A DNA stretch of 64,000 nucleotides from Deltaproteobacteria bacterium (GCA_027028245.1 JALVJO010000136.1:1362-65361); one strand, 5' to 3'; counted from the stretch's first letter, positions 5,621 to 55,371 are shown. Made by a program: numbers and translations. The notes: generated from the letters alone by a model not told the origin.

Positions 5621-5666
5621 AAAAGATGCTGCATTTTATTCAGCCGGGTACCCGTTAGTTTATAAG

Positions 5667-5890
5667 AGGAGCATTCCCAGTTTGTCCCTGGACGAAGAAG
5701 GGCAAGGAAGGTGCATTTCTTTCAAGGTTCACCAAGCCGCTGTGCAAGTTTCAAATTCTTCTCGAATGCAGACATGGCCAATCTCGGCGGCCTGACTGCG
5801 GCTGAAGTTGGCTTCCTTGTGGTGAGACCTTTCAAGAAACACACCTTCCTTGCCAGTGGCAAAAATGGGGGACAAACTGGGAATACTCGC
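5667..5890 (+). repeat. Copy A of a ~224-nt palindromic intergenic element (MITE-like, or a candidate structured RNA)
   Basis: Roughly 90 percent identical by eye to 36442-36665 and 53317-53542. The terminal arms 5669-5688 and 5869-5888 pair over 20 nt with 1 mismatch. The inner arms GGCAAGGAAGGTG (5701-5713) and CACCTTCCTTGCC (5842-5854) pair perfectly. Flanked by TTTATAAG (5659-5666) and TTTGATAAG (5891-5899). Confidence 0.8.
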
Positions 5891-6058
5891 TTTGATAAGT
5901 GTAATGAGACAGTACGGCCTGGTCTGGATGTGTCTTCAGCAGGCCTCTGACAGGGCATAATCCGGCCTGCTGAATTCAGATACAGCACATTAGCGTCAAG
6001 TCAGCCTTGAAATTGACTGGTTTTCTGTTATCTTTTTTCAAGATAAATCAATTAATGT

Positions 6059-6094
6059 AAAGACTGCCTGTTTTTTTGCATGGCGGTCTTTTTT
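6059..6094 (+). terminator. Intrinsic terminator-like hairpin in the greA leader
   Basis: AGACTGCC (6061-6068) pairs with GGCGGTCT (6082-6089), 8 bp including one G-U. It is followed by TTTTT, and lies 30 nt upstream of the greA ATG. Confidence 0.55.
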
Positions 6095-6123
6095 AATGAT
6101 TTGAATAGATTCTTGAGGAATTA

Positions 6124-15321: not shown

Positions 15322-16233
15322 CTAATAAAGAATACAATCGCCGTTATCGTATCCGAATTCTGTGCAGTTCAGGTTGATGCCGCCTTGTCCGTAATCGCAG
15401 TACCCATCTCCCAGCCACGACTGGACATAGGAAAGAGGAACTGTATTCCCTGAACAGTCCACTGTGTAATAGCTTCCTCCATTTCCTCCTCCGTAACTGC
15501 AGTCACCGTAATCCCAGTTGTACTGGGCACAGTAAAGTACCATTCCATATGTACCGTCGTCACAGTACCCATCCCCCAGCCATGACTGTAACTGTGCAAC
15601 CGAGACGGTGTTTCCCACGCAGTCTACAGTGTAGGCGCCGGCTGTATTGGACGTCCCTCCTCCATATCCGCAGTCACCGTAGTCCCAGTTGTACTGGGCA
15701 CAGTAAAGTACCATTCCATATGTACCGTCGTCACAGTACCCATCCCCCAGCCATGACTGTAACTGTGCAACCGGGACGGTGTTTCCCACGCAGTCTGTAG
15801 TGTATGAGTTTCCTCCAGTACCCCCGCCATAGTTGCAGTCACCGTAATCCCAGTTGTACTGGGCACAGTTTAATACCAGGCCGTATGTGCCGTCGTCGCA
15901 GTACCCATCTCCCAGCCATGAGTTGATTGTGGCAGCAGAGGCGACATTTCCAACGCAGTCTGTTGAATATCCGCCTCCTAAACCAGTGCTTGAACAATCC
16001 CCGTTATCATAATTAAATGTTGAACAGTTTAGGTCTATTCCCCAGGTGCCGTCATCGCAGAATCCATCTCCCAATGCTGCTTGGACTGTATCACCGGATG
16101 TCAAGTTCCCTGCACAGTCCATCACCGTCATATAGATGGACGCTGCATTTAAAGATTTTGGCGAAGCAAGAAGAACAAGAAATAAAATAGAAACACAGCC
16201 GAATCCCAGCGATTTTTTTAATGTTCCCGACAT
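15322..16233 (-). CDS. Secreted Cys-rich protein with five tandem 4-Cys modules (LGDGYCDDG...YNWDYGDC; Notch/LNR-like flavour)
   Basis: Signal peptide present. Five modules share identical Cys spacing (C-x18-C-x10-C-x9-C), starting at aa 40, 93, 148, 205 and 260. Confidence 0.8.
   Translation of the reverse strand: MSGTLKKSLGFGCVSILFLVLLASPKSLNAASIYMTVMDCAGNLTSGDTVQAALGDGFCDDGTWGIDLNCSTFNYDNGDCSSTGLGGGYSTDCVGNVASAATINSWLGDGYCDDGTYGLVLNCAQYNWDYGDCNYGGGTGGNSYTTDCVGNTVPVAQLQSWLGDGYCDDGTYGMVLYCAQYNWDYGDCGYGGGTSNTAGAYTVDCVGNTVSVAQLQSWLGDGYCDDGTYGMVLYCAQYNWDYGDCSYGGGNGGSYYTVDCSGNTVPLSYVQSWLGDGYCDYGQGGINLNCTEFGYDNGDCILY
15463..15804 (-). repeat. Two near-identical 171-nt in-frame tandem repeats inside the Cys-rich gene
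   Basis: Modules 3 and 4 (aa 144-200 and 201-257) are almost identical at nucleotide level. The same peptide strings recur with a 57-codon period in several frames of the ORF track. Confidence 0.85.
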
Positions 16234-35998: not shown

Positions 35999-36441
35999 AT
36001 TCTCATATCGTCGTCATCATGCTGGTTGAGTGAAAAGAATAACAGCATTGCATTAAAAGATGTAACAGGTTACAAGGCATCCTATTTTGCTCCAATTTGT
36101 TTTTGAATTCGAGTCGACATTGCTTATGAGACTCTATATCATCATCAGCCCTTTTTGACAGCTCATCATGCAATTTGAATATCCCGTATTATCAGATTGT
36201 CCGAGTTTTTTTAGTTTTTAATGAAAATTATATAAGTCTTTTCGAATTTTTATCTTAAAAACTCAACTTTCAGAGTTGGTGTTTGAGAAAATTTAAGGGA
36301 TGATCCCGGATAATATATTGAGACCTCTTAAAAAGGGTTCATAATTTGTCGCTGTACGAATTTCCACCCGGCCTGTTTCCATTGGCTTTTTTTCGAGCAT
36401 TCCTTGACACTCCTGCTGCCTTCGTGTCATATTCGCTGAAC

Positions 36442-36665
36442 TGTGAGCATTCCCAGTTTGACCCTGGACGAAGAAGGGCAAGGAAGGTGCATTTCTTTCA
36501 AGGTTCACCAAGCCGCTGTGCAGATTTCAAATTCTTCTCGAATACAGACATCGCCAATCTCATCGACCTGGCTGCGGCTGAAGTTGGCTTCCTTGTGGTG
36601 AAACCTTTCAAGAAATACCTCTTCCTTGCCAGTGGTACAAATGTGGGACAAACTGGGCATACTCC
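36442..36665 (+). repeat. Copy B of the ~224-nt palindromic intergenic element
   Basis: Aligns along its full length with copies A and C. Flanked by the perfect 8-nt direct repeat CGCTGAAC (36434-36441 and 36666-36673). Confidence 0.8.
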
Positions 36666-36788
36666 CGCTGAACTTTTCAGGGGCAATGAAGTCTGCCTGA
36701 ACCACTGTACCAGCAGTTGATGACTTCTGTTTGATTAAAACGCTGTATCAGCGGCGTCTTGGGCAAGCAGAATAAGGTTTGTGTGGAT

Positions 36789-36817
36789 CCTGCCTGAGTT
36801 ATCAGGCAGGTTTTTTT
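36789..36817 (+). terminator. Strong intrinsic terminator 13 nt upstream of the antiporter ATG
   Basis: CCTGCCTGA (36789-36797) pairs with TCAGGCAGG (36802-36810) around a 4-nt loop, followed by TTTTTTT (36811-36817). Then come the RBS GGAGGG and the ATG at 36831. Confidence 0.7.
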
Positions 36818-36830
36818 GTTTGGAGGGCAA

Positions 36831-38306
36831 ATGGATCTCAGTATTGCTCTAATCATATTATTGGGACTTGGAGCAGATTACCTCTTCAAGAGGATCAAGC
36901 TGCCAGGCCTCATAGGCATGCTGATTATCGGCGTTTTGGCCGGTCCCTACGTATTGAACCTCATGTCTCCGGATATGATGAAGGTTTCCGGGGACTTCAG
37001 GAAGATTGCCCTGATCGTTATCCTTTTGAGGGCCGGCTTTGAGCTCAGAAGGGATACCTTGAACCGGGTGGGCCGCACTGCACTTCTACTGAGCGCGGTA
37101 CCTGCAGTCTTTGAGATAGCAGCAGTTACCTGGTTTGCTCCCAGGCTGCTTGGTATCAGCTACATAGAGGCTGCTATCCTCGGTTCCATCCTCGGCGCTG
37201 TCTCTCCGGCCGTGGTGGTGCCTCTCATGATCGACTTCATGGACCGGGGCAGAGGGGCAAAGAAGGGGATTCCAACCCTGATACTTGCTGCGTCTTCGGT
37301 AGATGATGTTTTTGTAATAGTACTGTTCACCATCTTTCTAGGCATGTACGGTGGCGGCCAGGTAAATATCTGGGCGAAGCTTGCCGAGATCCCGGTATCC
37401 ATAACCTTAGGCATTCTCATAGGCCTGATCCCGGGCTATTTTCTTTACAGGCTTTTTGAAAAGTACGACTGGCGCCCTCCGAAGAGAACGCTCATTGTCC
37501 TGGGAGTCTCCATAGTCCTTACCTGGATCGAAAAAAAATGCGAAGGCCATGTGCCCATAGCCAGCCTGCTGGGGGTTATGGCCATTGGTTTTATCATCCT
37601 GGAGAAATCAGAGCCCATCGCCCATATAATGTCCCAGAAGCTCAAGAAGCTATGGGTCTTTGCAGAACTTCTGCTCTTCGTGCTGGTAGGAGCCCAGGTA
37701 AACATCCACGTTGCCCTGGATGCAGGGTTCATGGGAAGCCTGGTGATCCTCATAGGCTTGGTGTTCAGAAGCATCGGCACTTATCTCTGCCTTATGGGCA
37801 CTCCACTGACCCAGAAGGAAAGGCTGTTTACCATTGTTTCCTATATTCCCAAGGCCACTGTTCAGGCTGCCATAGGTGCCGTGCCTTTGGCATATGGAGT
37901 TGCCTCGGGGGATGTCATCCTCGCCGTGGCTGTTCTGTCCATTCTGCTTACTGCCCCCATAGGCGCCGTGGGTATCATGTTTCTGGGAGAAAGAATCCTG
38001 GATTATGGCGCCAAGTCTCCTTACAAGTTCAAGGAACTCAGGCGCAAGCTGGAACTTCCCAGGGTAGGTGAGCGCATACGGTGCAGGAAGGATGGTTCTT
38101 TGTGGAAGGTGATTGAAGAAAGGGAAATATGGCTGGAAGAGCAAAATGGAAAAAAAGGATTGGAACATCCTGTGCCCGCAATAGAACTAAGGCTGTGGCG
38201 TGAAGAAAAAGATATCGAACCCGGCAGGGGTCAGACCACGTACAGAATTTACAAGCAGGGAGATCCCCCTTTTACCGCAGAATGGGAGATCATTTACGAC
38301 TGGTAG
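36831..38306 (+). CDS. Cation:proton antiporter (Na+/H+ exchanger family, NhaP/CPA1-like) with C-terminal soluble extension
   Basis: MDLSIALIILLGLGADYLFKRIKLPGLIGMLIIGVLAGP... is a typical N-terminus. About 12 TM helices plus a ~90-aa hydrophilic tail. ATG at 36831 chosen because it follows GGAGGG; the track ORF starts at a TTG at 36816. Confidence 0.85.
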   Translation: MDLSIALIILLGLGADYLFKRIKLPGLIGMLIIGVLAGPYVLNLMSPDMMKVSGDFRKIALIVILLRAGFELRRDTLNRVGRTALLLSAVPAVFEIAAVTWFAPRLLGISYIEAAILGSILGAVSPAVVVPLMIDFMDRGRGAKKGIPTLILAASSVDDVFVIVLFTIFLGMYGGGQVNIWAKLAEIPVSITLGILIGLIPGYFLYRLFEKYDWRPPKRTLIVLGVSIVLTWIEKKCEGHVPIASLLGVMAIGFIILEKSEPIAHIMSQKLKKLWVFAELLLFVLVGAQVNIHVALDAGFMGSLVILIGLVFRSIGTYLCLMGTPLTQKERLFTIVSYIPKATVQAAIGAVPLAYGVASGDVILAVAVLSILLTAPIGAVGIMFLGERILDYGAKSPYKFKELRRKLELPRVGERIRCRKDGSLWKVIEEREIWLEEQNGKKGLEHPVPAIELRLWREEKDIEPGRGQTTYRIYKQGDPPFTAEWEIIYDW

Positions 38307-39800: not shown

Positions 39801-41306
39801 ATGAAAAAAACTAAGAAAGATTTCTCAGCTCAGAAGCTGACCAGGTTGAAAAAGGATTTAATCTCGTTCTTTTCAGGGGGGCTGAAGAAAGATGTCGATA
39901 TCGGATACCGTCGTAGGGTCATTCTGCTCAATTTGGTGTGCATTGTGGGAATCATTATACTCATTCCCATGGCTGTGCTTGCCTTTGTTCAGTCTGATCC
40001 TCATCTGGGAACAAGTGATCTTGTAATGGCTGGACTGCTTATTTCTAATATCCTTTATCTTCAAAAGACAGGTTATTATAAGCAGTTTATCTTTTCCAGT
40101 GCTATTCTGGCCATGATCTTTTACATGTATCTTTTCTTTTCCGGCGGGGTAAACAGCACGGCCTTTGTCTGGTATTATACATTTCCTCTGTTTTCACTAT
40201 TTATTCTTGGCACATTTACAGGCAGCATACTGACCTTTATTCTGTTTATGTCAGCATTGATATTTTTCATTATTGATCCGCATAAGCCGTATCTTGCAAA
40301 TTATCCTCTGGATCTGAAATTGCGTTTTATTCCCTCATTTATAACCGTCTATCTATTTGCATACGGCTTTGAATACCTCCGTCAGCAAACAGAAAACAAA
40401 CTCGAAACCTCAAGAAATCATCTGGCCGAAGAAAAGAGAAGGGCAGAAAAGGCCAACCAGGCCAAAAGCGAATTTTTGGCCAACATGAGCCATGAACTGA
40501 GGACACCTTTGAACCATATTATAGGTTTTACTGAACTGGTTCTAGACAAAAACTTTGGTGACTTGAATAAAAAACAGGAAGAATTCCTAACCCATGTGCT
40601 TGACAGCAGCCGCCATCTGCTCTCCTTAATCAATGATATCCTGGATCTTTCCAAGATAGAGGCCGGGAAGCTTGAACTGCATCCATCTAAGGTGCCCATT
40701 AGGATCATTTTGGAAAACAGTCTCATAATGATAAAAGAAAAGTGCCTGAAGCACAGCATAAAGGTTTCCCTTGATATGGAAGCTGTTCCAGAGACCATTC
40801 AAGCTGATGAGCGCAAGCTGAAACAGATTATGTATAATCTGCTTTCAAATGCAGTGAAATTTACACCAGACGGGGGGCAGATACATATCAAGGCCGATCT
40901 GGTTGAATGCTCCAAGTTTGGTTCAAAGGGGGAAAACTGCAAGGGTGACGTAGAGGCACGAGTTTTAGTTGACCAACTATCAGTCATCAAACAATGCATA
41001 CGGGTTTCAGTAGCGGATACCGGTATAGGGCTTAGGCAGGAAGACCTCCAGAAAATTTTCAGGCCCTTTGAACAGGTTGAAAACTCCAAAAGCCGCAAAT
41101 ATCAAGGAACTGGGCTGGGACTTTCCCTTACGAAGCGTCTGGTGGAACTTCACGGGGGATGCATCTGGGCAGAAAGCCGGGGAGAAGGCAAGGGCTGTGT
41201 ATTTTCCTTTTTGATTCCAGTGAGAGATTTTGGGAAGAAGTCAAGGAAGAAAGACTATCAAGACCATCCATTACAACATTCCAATTACCAGAGCCATGAC
41301 TTTTGA
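39801..41306 (+). CDS. Membrane sensor histidine kinase
   Basis: About 6 TM helices. HisKA H-box [14 protein letters not shown]. HATPase_c N, G1 and G2 boxes ([24 protein letters not shown]). Start chosen at MKKTKKD. Confidence 0.9.
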
Positions 41307-45718: not shown

Positions 45719-47883
45719 TGCTGATAGATTATCGGAAACTCCCTCTTAAAAAGAAGCTGACCATTATTATCCTTGCTACGTCAGGCCTCATGATAATGGT
45801 AGTTTCTGCGATTCTTCTGGCAAATGAAGCGTTTTCTATAAAAAGGTCCGTACTGCACAACCTTTCCACAATAGCAGAAATCACGGCGATAAACAGTACT
45901 GCTGCCCTGAGCTTTGAATCTCCGGAAACGGCTGAGGAACTCCTCCATGCTCTAAAGGCAGAACCTCATATTGTTGCAGCGGCCATTTATTCCCGAGACG
46001 GCAGGTTATTTTCCAAATATTCGGTGTCTTCCAAGGAAAAGCTGCCTGAAAAAATAGATATAGAAAGGCTCTTTGGAAAACCTCAGATAGGTTCTGGTGC
46101 TTATCTGTACCAACCAGACAGGGCGGAATCCAGGGGCTTTATTCTAGTGGCCGTTCCAGTCAAAATAAATAACAAATTGATAGGGGCATTTTTGGTACAG
46201 GCAGACCGAAGCTGGATATACAGGCATATCAAGCTTTTCACCTTAATTGTTTTTTTCATAATGGCAGGCCTTATTGTTATTTCTTACTTCATATCTGCCA
46301 GGTTGCAGAGGATCGTTTCAGAGCCCATTGAACAACTTGCAGCTGCAATGCAAAAGGTGAAGAAGAAGCAGGATTTTTCGCTGCGCGTCAATACTCATGG
46401 AAGTAGCGACGAATTAGGATTGTTGATGGATGGCTTCAACAACATGCTTGAACAGCTGCAAAACAGAGATAAAGAGCTGGAAGAAAAAAGGCAAGAGCTG
46501 GAAAGGCAGGTGAAACTTCGGACAGAGGCGTTGAAATTAAGCGAAGCTCAAAAACAAAAGCTTTGGCTCCAGAAGAAGATTCAGCAGGCTTACAGTGAAC
46601 TTGTCACTCAAATGAATACCATAGATGTAAGCGCAATGTTGGCAACATGCCTTTTTCAAATGTCAGAGGTATCAGGAATGTTATGGGGTGCGGTCTTCTT
46701 GAGGGAAAAAGGAGGCCGGGGCTTAACCTTGAAGGGAGTTTATAAGGACGCCATGACCGAGGAATGGCAGAGGCAGAATGCAGCGTATCTGTCTCAAATG
46801 GAGCGAATCGGGATGAAGGAGGCGAAAAGGGTCGTCTGCAGCGGAAAGCCTTCCATAGAAAAACTAGACCATGATCCAGAAAGGGGTATGTTTGTCCCCC
46901 TGGTGATTGTAGCCTTTCCCCTGGAATTTCAAACCAAGAGGATCGGGGCCTTGGTCCTTCTCGGCCCAAGGCAGCCAAACGATTATACCTTGACCTTCTT
47001 GAGCAATTCCACCAAGCAACTAGGCGTAGCAATTCACAATGCCATGATATTTGAAGACCTTTCGAAGAAATCGGCGGAACTTGAACACAGCAATTTGGAA
47101 CTTCAAAGGGCATCGAGGATGAAGAGTGACTTTCTGGCCAACATGAGCCACGAACTTCGAACTCCTTTAAATGCGATATTGGGTTTTTCAGAGCTGCTTC
47201 TTGACGAGCACCTGGGCAAGCTCACCGATGAGCAGAAAGATTATCTTAAAGACATATTTGAAAGCGGAAAGCATCTTCTCGGTCTGATCAACGACATCCT
47301 GGATCTTTCCAAGATAGAGGCGGGGAAGGCCGAGCTTATAGTGGAAACTCTCAGGGTGAAGGACATCCTGGAGTCCAGCCTTACCATGATTCGCTATAAG
47401 GCCATTAAACACAATATCAATCTTTCGCTTCATATAGATGAATCTGTTCCTGAGGTCATAAAGGCCGATCAACAAAAATTCAAGCAGATTGCATACAACC
47501 TGGTTTCAAATGCAGTGAAATTTACTCCGGACAATGGGGAAATAGCATTGAAAGCCAAGGTTGTAACCAGGTCCTGGATGAAAGAAAATGTTCCCAAAGA
47601 CTTCTGTAATGATAACATTATGGACAAGGGCCATCCCAATGACAAATTTTTGGCTGTTTCGGTAAAAGACACCGGCATCGGAATAGATGAAAGTCATCTC
47701 CACAAGATTTTTGACGCTTTTGAACAGGTCGATTCATCGCGTGCAAAAAGATATAAGGGTACAGGTCTTGGGCTTGCGTTGTGCAAAAACCTGGTGGAAC
47801 TTCATGGAGGTGTAATTTGGGCGGAGAGTGTTCCTGGTGAGGGAAGTATTTTTTCCTTCACTATTGCTTTGCCTGCCGACTGA
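45715..47883 (+). CDS. Sensor histidine kinase with CHASE8-like periplasmic domain, HAMP, coiled coil, GAF-like region, HisKA and HATPase
   Basis: The N-terminal TM-sensor-TM region has ALKAEPHIVAAAIYSRDGRLFSKY. H-box [14 protein letters not shown]. ATPase boxes [16 protein letters not shown] and GTGLGLAL. Confidence 0.85.
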   Translation: MMLIDYRKLPLKKKLTIIILATSGLMIMVVSAILLANEAFSIKRSVLHNLSTIAEITAINSTAALSFESPETAEELLHALKAEPHIVAAAIYSRDGRLFSKYSVSSKEKLPEKIDIERLFGKPQIGSGAYLYQPDRAESRGFILVAVPVKINNKLIGAFLVQADRSWIYRHIKLFTLIVFFIMAGLIVISYFISARLQRIVSEPIEQLAAAMQKVKKKQDFSLRVNTHGSSDELGLLMDGFNNMLEQLQNRDKELEEKRQELERQVKLRTEALKLSEAQKQKLWLQKKIQQAYSELVTQMNTIDVSAMLATCLFQMSEVSGMLWGAVFLREKGGRGLTLKGVYKDAMTEEWQRQNAAYLSQMERIGMKEAKRVVCSGKPSIEKLDHDPERGMFVPLVIVAFPLEFQTKRIGALVLLGPRQPNDYTLTFLSNSTKQLGVAIHNAMIFEDLSKKSAELEHSNLELQRASRMKSDFLANMSHELRTPLNAILGFSELLLDEHLGKLTDEQKDYLKDIFESGKHLLGLINDILDLSKIEAGKAELIVETLRVKDILESSLTMIRYKAIKHNINLSLHIDESVPEVIKADQQKFKQIAYNLVSNAVKFTPDNGEIALKAKVVTRSWMKENVPKDFCNDNIMDKGHPNDKFLAVSVKDTGIGIDESHLHKIFDAFEQVDSSRAKRYKGTGLGLALCKNLVELHGGVIWAESVPGEGSIFSFTIALPAD

Positions 47884-53299: not shown

Positions 53300-53316
53300 A
53301 TGTGGCAGGCGCTGCC

Positions 53317-53542
53317 GGGAGCATTCCCCGTTTGTCCCTGGACGAAGAATGGCAAGGATCGGTGCATTTCTTTCAAGGTTCACCAAGCCGCTGTGCAGAT
53401 TTCAAATTCTTCTCGAATGCAGACATCGCCAATCTCAGCGGCTTGACTGCGGCTGAAGTTGGCTTCCTTGTGGTGAAACCTTTCAAGAAACACCCCTCCC
53501 TTGCCGGTGCCACAAATGGGGGACAAACTGGGAACGCTCCCA
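53317..53542 (+). repeat. Copy C of the ~224-nt palindromic intergenic element
   Basis: Starts 18 nt after the feoB stop. Aligns along its full length with copies A and B. Flanked by GCGCTGCC (53309-53316) and GCGCTGAC (53543-53550). Confidence 0.8.
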
Positions 53543-53630
53543 GCGCTGACTGGCTGAAAAAATAATATGCCGAATGCCTTTGGTGCTTCCCTAGGGCAGG
53601 AGAAAATTTTCGCCTAAGAACAGAATGATA

Positions 53631-53662
53631 AAAAGGCCGCCTGTTTTTGCAGACGGCCTTTT
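53631..53662. terminator. Bidirectional intrinsic terminator between feoB/copy C and the TSUP gene
   Basis: AAGGCCGCCTG (53633-53643) pairs with CAGACGGCCTT (53650-53660) with 1 mismatch. Flanked by AAAA on one side and TTTT on the other. Confidence 0.65.
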
Positions 53663-53691
53663 CAGTTGATCCCTATTTACAGGATTTATGT

Positions 53692-55371
53692 TTACCTCAT
53701 GAAGGGCAGAAGCTTCGTGTACTTCATGAAGACGATGATAAGTGCAAGGGCCAGCATCCTTTTCAGGAAGATCTCAGGAAGCTTCTTCTGGATCTTCGGG
53801 CCTACCATACCGCCAGCAATGGCGCCGCCGGCAATACATGCTGCCATGATCCAGTCAGGCTGGTAACCCATGAGGATGTACTTGGAAATACCACCCAGGG
53901 ATGTGGCAAAGGTCCCTGCCAGTGCGATAGGAACGGCCAGGTACATGGGATATCCCATGAATGTGGTCATAAATGGCATGAACATGAATCCACCGCCTAC
54001 GCCGAAGGAGGATGCGATCATTCCCATGATGATACCGCCGAGGAGCATGGTCAGAGGCTTGGCAACAAATGTCTCTCCCCAGAACCTCATGTCAAACTTG
54101 ATGAAGTTGAACTTATCGAATTCAACCTTTCCAAGCTCTGCGGCCTTTCCTGTCTTCTTGGCTTCTTCAACAGCCTTGTTGAACTTCTGGATAATGGCCT
54201 TGAGGGCCTTTTTCTTCTCAATGGTGCTGGGCAGACTTTCGTGATACAGCTTGAAGCCGATGAGCAGACAGATAATTCCAAGGTAGAACTTGTAGGCCTT
54301 CAGTGGCAGGTACTTGGCTGAAAACGTTGGTCCAATGAAGAAGGCGCCGATGAGAATACCGATGGCAAAGAATATGGCCACCGGCCAGGCGAAACGCTTG
54401 GACTTGAAGTAGCTGATAAGGCCTGTAAGAGGTGAACAAAGGGTCAGGAACAGGTTAGTAGGTTTGATGGTGTTGGCGGCATTGATACCGATTGGTCCCT
54501 TTGTTCCAATGACTGTAATCTGGTATGCAGCTGTGAAAAGACCGCCTGCAGCACCCATGATGACAAAGAGGACGCCGATGACAAATGCTCCGCCGAGAAC
54601 CACCAGGGGATTCATGTAGCAGCCGCCTGTCTTGAAGTAAAAGGTGGACGGCTCAATGGAGAACGCAGTAGCCTTCTGGCCGTTTACCCAGACTGCAAGC
54701 TTGGTTTCTGGTGCAAGGTTCTTGTAGGGAGTCATGGTCAGTTCGAACTCGCCTGTAGCCTTGTCAAACTTGAGAGTAGTACCCTTGTTCCAGTCTTCTC
54801 TCTGGGCATTGTAATCTGTGAGGACCATCCTGGCAGTTCCGCCGCCCAGGGGTTTTTCCTTAACAACGGTGTTGATGCCGAATTTCTTTTCATGGGTGAA
54901 GGTGAGGAACTTCCACTGGGCTTCGGTATTGATGGGCCCCAGGAGGCTCTTTGCATATTCAGGGATATCAGCCCATTTCTTGATCTTGTTGATCCTGACC
55001 ATGAACTTGAACGGCGGGAAGGCGAAGGGGCCGCTTGTCTGGCCCATTGCCACGCTCTTGGGGGTGGCAAGGTCTTCAGGCTTGTTGGTGATTACGTAAT
55101 ATGTGGTTGGGATTGCAGTGTCGCCGAATTTCTTCTGGAGCTTCTTTCTCTCCTTTGCGCCAGGGGAGTCAGCCGGCTTGAACATCTTGTCCGTGCATAT
55201 CACAACGAAAAGATCCTGACCCGGATCGATCTTGCCTTTTACAGTAACAGGGTTTCCGGCCTTTACCCTGTCTCCCGATGCAACAGTAGCCTCAATGGCA
55301 AAGGAACTGACTGCGGAAAACGCCAGGACCACGAGGACAGATAGTAACTGGATAAAAAACTTTCTCTTCAT
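53692..55371 (-). CDS. TSUP (TauE/SafE) family anion-exporter-type membrane protein fused to an N-terminal ~240-aa extracytoplasmic domain
   Basis: Signal peptide plus a soluble domain. Then two 4-TM TSUP halves (GAAGGLFTAAY... and FGVGGGFMFMPF...), separated by a ~60-aa charged loop. Confidence 0.8.
   Translation of the reverse strand: MKRKFFIQLLSVLVVLAFSAVSSFAIEATVASGDRVKAGNPVTVKGKIDPGQDLFVVICTDKMFKPADSPGAKERKKLQKKFGDTAIPTTYYVITNKPEDLATPKSVAMGQTSGPFAFPPFKFMVRINKIKKWADIPEYAKSLLGPINTEAQWKFLTFTHEKKFGINTVVKEKPLGGGTARMVLTDYNAQREDWNKGTTLKFDKATGEFELTMTPYKNLAPETKLAVWVNGQKATAFSIEPSTFYFKTGGCYMNPLVVLGGAFVIGVLFVIMGAAGGLFTAAYQITVIGTKGPIGINAANTIKPTNLFLTLCSPLTGLISYFKSKRFAWPVAIFFAIGILIGAFFIGPTFSAKYLPLKAYKFYLGIICLLIGFKLYHESLPSTIEKKKALKAIIQKFNKAVEEAKKTGKAAELGKVEFDKFNFIKFDMRFWGETFVAKPLTMLLGGIIMGMIASSFGVGGGFMFMPFMTTFMGYPMYLAVPIALAGTFATSLGGISKYILMGYQPDWIMAACIAGGAIAGGMVGPKIQKKLPEIFLKRMLALALIIVFMKYTKLLPFMR

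Follow-up and report, generated by a model that had tools for sequence, protein, structure and literature searches.

What is the segment of approximately 224 nt that occurs three times in the 64,000-nt stretch of DNA analyzed here (the window)? A preliminary description, made from the sequence alone, had noted three intergenic copies in one orientation with about 90% identity, and had proposed that they might be plain MITEs, hairpins embedded in mRNAs or an RNA family. Alignment and repeat finding confirmed three copies in the window, all intergenic and all located on the + strand, and a BLAST search of the whole window identified no fourth copy, full or partial. The pairwise identities of copies A, B and C were approximately 92–93% by BLAST, in agreement with the earlier estimate, and the ungapped identities of copies B and C to copy A were 81–91%. 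The boundaries of the copies were refined from the 22-nt terminal repeats, and the coordinates given earlier were correct to within 1–2 nt (Table 1).

Copy A starts 46 nt past the lon stop codon, copy C starts 17 nt past the feoB stop codon (53299), and copy B is located upstream of a gene of the Na+/H+-exchanger family. The identities of the neighboring genes are those of recorded Pfam hits for identical proteins in related assemblies.

Table 1. Positions in the window of the three copies of the probable MITE, their ends and the features next to them
Feature	Positions	Strand	Description
Copy A, left target-site duplication	5659–5666		TTTATAAG; imperfect against right TTTGATAAG
Copy A	5667–5890	+	224 nt; between lon (stop 5620) and greA (start 6124)
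Copy A, left terminal repeat	5667–5688		AGGAGCATTCCCAGTTTGTCCC
Copy A, right terminal repeat	5869–5890		GGGACAAACTGGGAATACTCGC
Copy A, right target-site duplication	5891–5899		TTTGATAAG; one-base indel against TTTATAAG
Sigma-70-like promoter (predicted)	36404–36433	+	TTGACA, 18-nt spacer, CATATT, extended -10 TG; consensus match only
Copy B, left target-site duplication	36435–36442		GCTGAACT; perfect 8-mer
Copy B	36443–36666	+	224 nt; between predicted promoter and fluoride riboswitch
Copy B, right target-site duplication	36667–36674		GCTGAACT; perfect 8-mer
Fluoride riboswitch aptamer	36673–36736	+	RF01734, 43.2 bits, E=1e-8
Riboswitch expression-platform terminator	36789–36810	+	Upstream of Na+/H+-exchanger-family gene (36831–38306)
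Copy C, left target-site duplication	53308–53316		GGCGCTGCC; 9-mer
Copy C	53317–53541	+	225 nt; upstream of bidirectional terminator
Copy C, right target-site duplication	53542–53550		AGCGCTGAC; 7/9 against GGCGCTGCC
Terminator hairpin	53629–53664		Separates feoB and copy C from convergent gene 53692–55371(-)

The ends of the copies were informative about their origin. Each copy is bounded by 22-nt terminal inverted repeats with the consensus GGGAGCATTCCCAGTTTGTCCC, or, with the variable position written out, GGGAGCATTCCC(A/C)GTTTGTCCC. A parent IS would be expected to be bracketed by GGGAGCATTCCCCGTTTGTCCC, and a degenerate 20-nt end pattern, GAGYRTKCCCMGTTTGWCCC, was used for scans. This end pattern had exactly six matches in the window, corresponding to the six ends of copies A, B and C, as compared to 0.1 matches expected by chance.

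The direct repeats that had been described next to each copy are real, but their register had to be corrected. The repeat given earlier for copy B, CGCTGAAC, is GCTGAACT shifted by one base. For copy C, the ortholog in a related strain (L100) is flanked by a perfect 9-mer duplication, GGCAGCGCC. Among 39 independent insertions, 10 were flanked by perfect 8-mer and 5 by perfect 9-mer duplications (15/39 together), and another eight displayed near-perfect duplications (at least 6/8 or at least 7/9 identical positions); the chance of a single perfect 8-mer is approximately 1.5e-5. The perfect 8–9-bp duplications at 15 of the 39 insertions strongly support the earlier suggestion of target-site duplication by a DDE-type transposase. 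A possible target motif, CTGAA/TTCAG, was present in 6 of 41 duplications as compared to a background of 7.7%, which is not significant (p=0.09), and was rejected.

Scans with the end pattern identified related elements in other genomes. The scanned set consisted of the GTDB species-representative genomes, among which the window's own genome is absent, and yielded 52 loci, most of the real ones in Desulfobacterota-type MAGs. One of these (L019, from 'Deltaproteobacteria bacterium', JALVQQ01) is a copy of the 224-nt element with 94% identity. In the MAG WFRQ01 ('Deltaproteobacteria bacterium S015_17'), a 184-nt element that shares the 22-nt ends but differs in its interior is present in approximately 30 copies, and many WFRQ01 contigs terminate in this element. 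The same 22-nt ends were also found on two longer elements of 266 nt (L070) and 434 nt (L045, in a Thermodesulfatator MAG), in neither of which coding remnants were seen, as well as on minis of 75–76 nt with unrelated interiors in three MAGs (L014, L025/L061 and L030). The minis (L014, 486–560; L025, 3652–3727; L030, 4035–4110) consist of the two 22-nt ends and an unrelated spacer of 31–32 nt, and the one at L030 has a perfect 8-bp duplication. Their common length may represent the minimum size for mobilization.

Additional copies of the 224-nt element were found by utilizing a stop-free frame on the + strand, the 74-aa translation of which served as a handle. The 18 short 'proteins' without Pfam domains recovered in this manner are gene-caller artefacts over further copies. 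A coding function for the element was rejected: the + strand frame is free of stop codons, but it is displaced by indels between copies and the start codon is not conserved. The contexts of six artefact proteins and the flanks revealed seven more distinct 224-nt loci in the species group of the window, located between fliW and nrdR (the same site as in L019), between a Zn-ribbon gene and spoU, upstream of queF, of a HU gene and of an unnamed gene, and downstream of a PIN-toxin gene and of a napH-like gene. The copy at the nrdR site is common to two lineages that are approximately 95% identical to each other. One 56-nt fragment of the element was also found.

In the species group of the window, the 224-nt family occupies a minimum of 10 distinct loci, and the search for further copies that the preliminary description had proposed shows that the three copies are not a mere local duplication. 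The only argument for an assembly artefact or a segmental duplication of local extent would be that just three copies lie in the window. This possibility is rejected as exceedingly improbable, in that copies are spread over many contigs and unrelated sites, in other genera as well as in several MAGs, and each copy has its own target duplication.

The related strains used for comparison (MAGs GCA_0540xxxxx and GCA_027027125) were retrieved via identical flanking proteins. Copies A, B and C were present at the same sites in every strain retrieved in this way, with 97–100% identity, and no empty site was observed among them. The strain DNA flanking copies B and C differs in places from that of the window: the left flank in L110 (1–218) is unrelated to the window's, and L100 (4680–5104) contains 31 extra nt together with the perfect 9-bp duplication. 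These differences are due either to recombination between copies or to chimeric assembly at the repeat. Several short-read contigs terminate within the element (L097, L101–L104 and L112), and the family thus breaks the short-read assemblies of these MAGs.

Based on these results, we conclude that the element is very probably a MITE, a non-coding element of an ordinary kind that has spread through intergenic spaces in uncultured, sulfate-reducer-like Desulfobacterota. It is 224–225 nt long, which is below the MITE size limit of approximately 600 bp, and contains neither a transposase nor a conserved ORF; the terminal repeats are conserved, and the copies are multiple, dispersed and flanked by duplications of 8–9 bp. 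The plain-MITE interpretation in the preliminary description is therefore strongly supported by the same ends on unrelated interiors, by the 8–9-bp duplications and by the dispersal of the copies. The finding of one conserved end on many interiors, with a separate duplication at each copy, is characteristic of non-autonomous elements mobilized in trans by one transposase. Such a transposase would recognize both ends and cut the target with a stagger of 8–9 bp, after which gap repair would duplicate the target. The enzyme is most likely of the DDE type. A duplication of 8–9 bp is compatible with, for example, IS256-, IS1- and ISAs1-type enzymes; it fits several DDE IS families and does not identify one of them. 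Copies would persist where they do little harm, that is, after stop codons and before terminators (copies A and C) or in promoter and leader regions (copy B), where they would be passively co-transcribed.

An autonomous element with the same ends was not detected in end-pattern scans of genomes, metagenomes and viral contigs, no transposase ORF or distant partner end was found at any solo end or on any long contig inspected, and BLAST of the end sequence against plasmids gave no match. Thus, the full-length IS with the same inverted repeats, which had been named earlier as support for a plain MITE, was not found in the genome, metagenome, viral and plasmid collections scanned. Viral contigs scanned with a pattern for the inner arms of the element likewise gave no match. 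Literature searches identified nothing relevant to the end sequence and no MITEs in Desulfobulbaceae. Desulfobacterota lineages thus have in common a superfamily of MITEs in which a single 22-bp end is conserved, and this implies a widespread transposase. The family has given rise to 18 clusters of spurious 'hypothetical proteins' in public protein collections, and its annotation would clean up genomes. The current understanding of MITEs remains unchanged.

The closest described element is Chunjie from Geobacter (Geotalea) uraniireducens Rf4, originally reported by Chen et al. (2008, Genetics 179:2291) as described in PMC3184786 and PMC10969869. Chunjie (for example, NC_009483:2632106–2632324) is described as measuring 178–235 bp, its terminal inverted repeats are 21 bp and its direct repeats 9 bp long, and the RNA is predicted to fold with approximately -98 to -130 kcal/mol; it is A+T-rich, and occupies intergenic sites as well as a site within an operon that it leaves intact, in a host referred to as a 'deltaproteobacterium' (PMC3184786, PMC10969869). 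The present elements are closely similar in these parameters, with lengths of 176–225 bp, 22-bp repeats, duplications of 8–9 bp and fold energies between -79 and -142 kcal/mol, whereas the G+C content of the 224-nt element is approximately 50%. The end-pattern scan of genomes gave no match in Geobacter, showing that the present ends are not identical to those of Chunjie. The family has apparently not yet been described.

QMITE2 of Coxiella burnetii, as described in PMC5896051 and PMC10969869, is approximately 190 bp with terminal repeats of 23–29 bp and direct repeats of 7–9 bp, folds into a rod with approximately -113 kcal/mol, and is intergenic with truncated derivatives. The likeness to the present element lies in these parameters, and the host is an unrelated gammaproteobacterium. 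Correia elements in Neisseria and ERIC in Enterobacteriaceae are short, palindromic, multicopy and intergenic, and like the present element in these respects; they are co-transcribed with adjacent genes and can alter the processing or stability of mRNAs. Correia elements are approximately 104–157 bp and duplicate TA, ERIC is approximately 127 bp and has no 8–9-bp duplication, and the ends of both differ from those of the present element. REP/BIME sequences, which are mobilized by RAYT (IS200/IS605-like) transposases, form intergenic hairpins with an orientation bias and stabilize the 3' ends of mRNAs. REPs are 20–40 nt without long terminal inverted repeats or target duplication, in contrast to the 224 nt, the 22-nt terminal repeats and the 8–9-bp duplication observed here. 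The present features indicate cut-and-paste or copy-paste chemistry in which the target is cut with a stagger of 8–9 bp.

Copy A is predicted to fold into an end-to-end rod on either strand, with a free energy of -103 kcal/mol (z -7.8) for the + strand and -110.8 kcal/mol (z -9.4) for the - strand, and none of 200 shuffled sequences folded as well on either strand. The stems listed in the preliminary description are present in the minimum-free-energy structure of copy A. Such a stable fold, along with interior blocks that are conserved and recognizable also in elements of Thermodesulfatator MAGs, could indicate an independent family of structured non-coding RNA genes or a riboregulator, repeated by chance. 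We consider this highly improbable, because terminal inverted repeats together with target duplications demonstrate that the element moves as DNA. Furthermore, each half of the element is an inverted copy of the other, and the rod fold can thus be explained without a selected RNA structure.

Sequence comparisons did not favor an RNA gene either. At gathering thresholds, the only Rfam match in the whole window was the fluoride riboswitch, and a permissive scan of the element (E<=10) yielded nothing beyond a chance match of 7 bits. RNAalifold analysis of ten paralogous copies predicted 67 pairs, with a double compensatory change in 1/67, and the covariation term was unfavorable (+0.97), a value of limited power given that the copies are 91% identical. 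The non-consensus stem cells included 16 G-U and 13 A-C combinations, suggesting that mutations that preserve pairing are no better tolerated on the + strand than on the - strand, and the - strand folded better in 8 of the 10 copies. Consensus scans identified no convincing promoter inside the element, and terminator scans no convincing terminator on either of its strands; a weak outward TTGCCA-17-CAAACT was observed by eye only.

The comparison between strains showed that stems decay. In the orthologs of copy A in L091, L092 and L094, five clustered changes break the 13-bp inner stem while the partner arm is unchanged, which is the decay without compensation that had been predicted for a plain MITE. 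Copy A differs by 2.7–3.6% between strains, as compared to 0/233 nt in the flanking intergenic DNA and 0.7–1.4% at third codon positions of lon. This divergence argues against purifying selection, and may partly reflect mis-assembly of repeats in the MAGs. Thus, the proposal of a structured non-coding RNA could not be upheld, with no Rfam match, no covariation, no strand asymmetry of G-U and A-C combinations and uncompensated stem decay.

One copy, L117 (9987–10211), is a perfect palindrome with a predicted free energy of -142 kcal/mol, since its left subterminal arm matches the reverse complement of the right one at every position. Repair templated by the hairpin, or template switching, is suggested by this identity. 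The replacement of one arm by the reverse complement of the other indicates that the palindrome is maintained by events at the DNA level.

The distribution of variable sites among the copies was uneven. Two inner-arm blocks of approximately 50 nt each (alignment columns 47–99 and 137–182) contained 13% variable columns, as compared to 60% in the apex, 44–70% in the subterminal regions and 32–50% in the terminal repeats (Fisher p=1e-9). When only singleton changes were counted, 8/98 columns were variable in the inner arms versus 39/126 in the rest (p=3e-5), which corresponds to an approximately fourfold lower variability. The earlier claim of a better conserved center thus holds for the inner arms, but not for the apex. 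The same conservation architecture was seen in the 184-nt family, and the inner-arm blocks are recognizable in the Thermodesulfatator MAG elements L032 and L045, in which three paired changes restore the stem.

Conservation of the inner arms is not predicted by simple neutral decay after insertion, and counts against a passive MITE. Since the pattern recurs in a sister family with random orientation and in another genus, we interpret the inner arms as serving the element itself. Most likely, they would be needed for mobility, either as extra contacts for the transposase or for the geometry of the hairpin. If the constraint on the inner arms is real, most of the 'variation' would represent differences between source lineages.

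The orientation of the copies relative to genes was a second feature not expected of a passive MITE. In the 224-nt family, each of the 10 copies that could be scored was co-oriented with the nearest gene (binomial p=0.002), in a small sample for which the 'nearest gene' criterion was chosen after the data had been seen. The scored contexts included three tandem, four divergent and two convergent gene pairs, in addition to the partial copy L004. Half of the scored copies were found via + strand ORFs, which may favor co-oriented copies; all six copies found without ORF calls were also co-oriented (p=0.03). For the 184-nt family, 15 copies were co-oriented and 10 anti-oriented (p=0.42), and the difference between the two families was significant (Fisher p=0.034). 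The random orientation that had been expected of a plain MITE was thus observed in the 184-nt family, but not in the 224-nt family. The locus L113 contains two copies 9.6 kb apart in opposite orientations, each matching its neighboring gene, which suggests that the bias tracks transcription and not replication. Co-orientation of 10/10 copies is not predicted by a purely passive MITE, and the bias is regarded here as no more than a lead.

One explanation, which would add to the MITE interpretation rather than replace it, is that the element has been co-opted, or its copies filtered, as a transcribed cis element with strand specificity. The orientation data, including the copies found without ORFs, the contrast with the 184-nt family and the two copies at L113, agree with this idea, as do the conserved inner arms and the location of copy B, which lies where the +1 of a riboswitch leader is predicted and is kept there in all strains. 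We nevertheless consider it unlikely: the sample is small, the criterion is post hoc, + strand ORFs were the route to half of the copies, there is neither covariation nor a G-U versus A-C asymmetry, the terminator scan gave nothing convincing on either strand of the element, and the 184-nt family has the same conservation of the inner arms without a significant orientation bias. The co-orientation lends weak support to the earlier idea that the element may be an mRNA-embedded hairpin.

As such a cis element, the + strand rod would be tolerated or useful in mRNAs, blocking exonucleases at the 3' side of lon, feoB and PIN-type genes and forming a protective 5' hairpin in leaders. Both strands fold equally well, and the stability of the hairpin can therefore not explain a strand preference. 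By eye, a hairpin followed by a pyrimidine/U-rich tract, CUUCUUCGU, was observed only on the - strand, although the terminator scan did not call this tract. The tract might be polar, and could in that case explain the orientation bias, since only + copies would then persist. The 224-nt subfamily may thus persist only when co-directional with transcription, as a strand-specific mRNA element or because the opposite orientation is polar, but we regard this as improbable on the present data. In an mRNA, the rod may act as a protective hairpin at the 5' or 3' end or as a processing site. If this were true, the conserved inner arms would represent a functional module that a transposon has carried from genus to genus.

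The surroundings of copy B are relevant to how a MITE is tolerated. The predicted promoter stops 1 nt short of the left duplication of copy B, and the fluoride riboswitch aptamer begins inside the right duplication. The predicted transcription start would fall inside the duplicated target, which would make the MITE the 5' end of the leader. From the arrangement of these sequence features, copy B appears to have been inserted at approximately +1 of the riboswitch leader, and would form the first ~232 nt of the mRNA if the promoter is used. The riboswitch and its terminator control the Na+/H+-exchanger-family gene, and copy B is present there in all related strains. The location of copy B at the +1 of a riboswitch gene and the possible orientation bias are small leads on the tolerance of MITEs inside transcription units. 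The preliminary description had placed an intrinsic terminator downstream of each copy. This needs correcting, in that the terminator after copy B is the expression platform of the riboswitch and not the end of a transcription unit.

Between copy A and greA, a promoter-like site (6007–6034) is followed by a hairpin and a T-run (approximately 6060–6098), all located before the start codon (window 6007–6123). This arrangement resembles a leader terminator of the kind described for the E. coli greA leader (GraL).

A second insertion was observed in L093 (4730–4990) and L094 (4730–4990), with a length of 258–261 nt. It is located between a cation-efflux gene and a ferredoxin gene and is absent from the window (~7852/7853). 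The ends are imperfectly inverted, GCCTAAATCCTGCA... and ...TGCAGAATTAAGGC, and are flanked by a 3-bp duplication, GAT. A piece of 65–72 nt recurs with 77–80% identity at eight loci of the MAG WFRQ01. The insertion has no Rfam match. This insertion is a second, unrelated family of mobile repeats that is polymorphic between strains.

Other repeated sequences in the window are located within genes. Three tandem copies of approximately 170 nt with 68–75% identity (15389–15961) lie inside the ORF 15322–16233(-) and are probably internal protein repeats. Two genes for sensor kinases, approximately 6.6 kb apart, share stretches with 72–76% identity (40779–40883 versus 47440–47544, and 41139–41176 versus 47791–47828), indicating that they encode paralogous histidine kinases. 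These two genes flank a TonB-dependent receptor and a DUF4154 gene.
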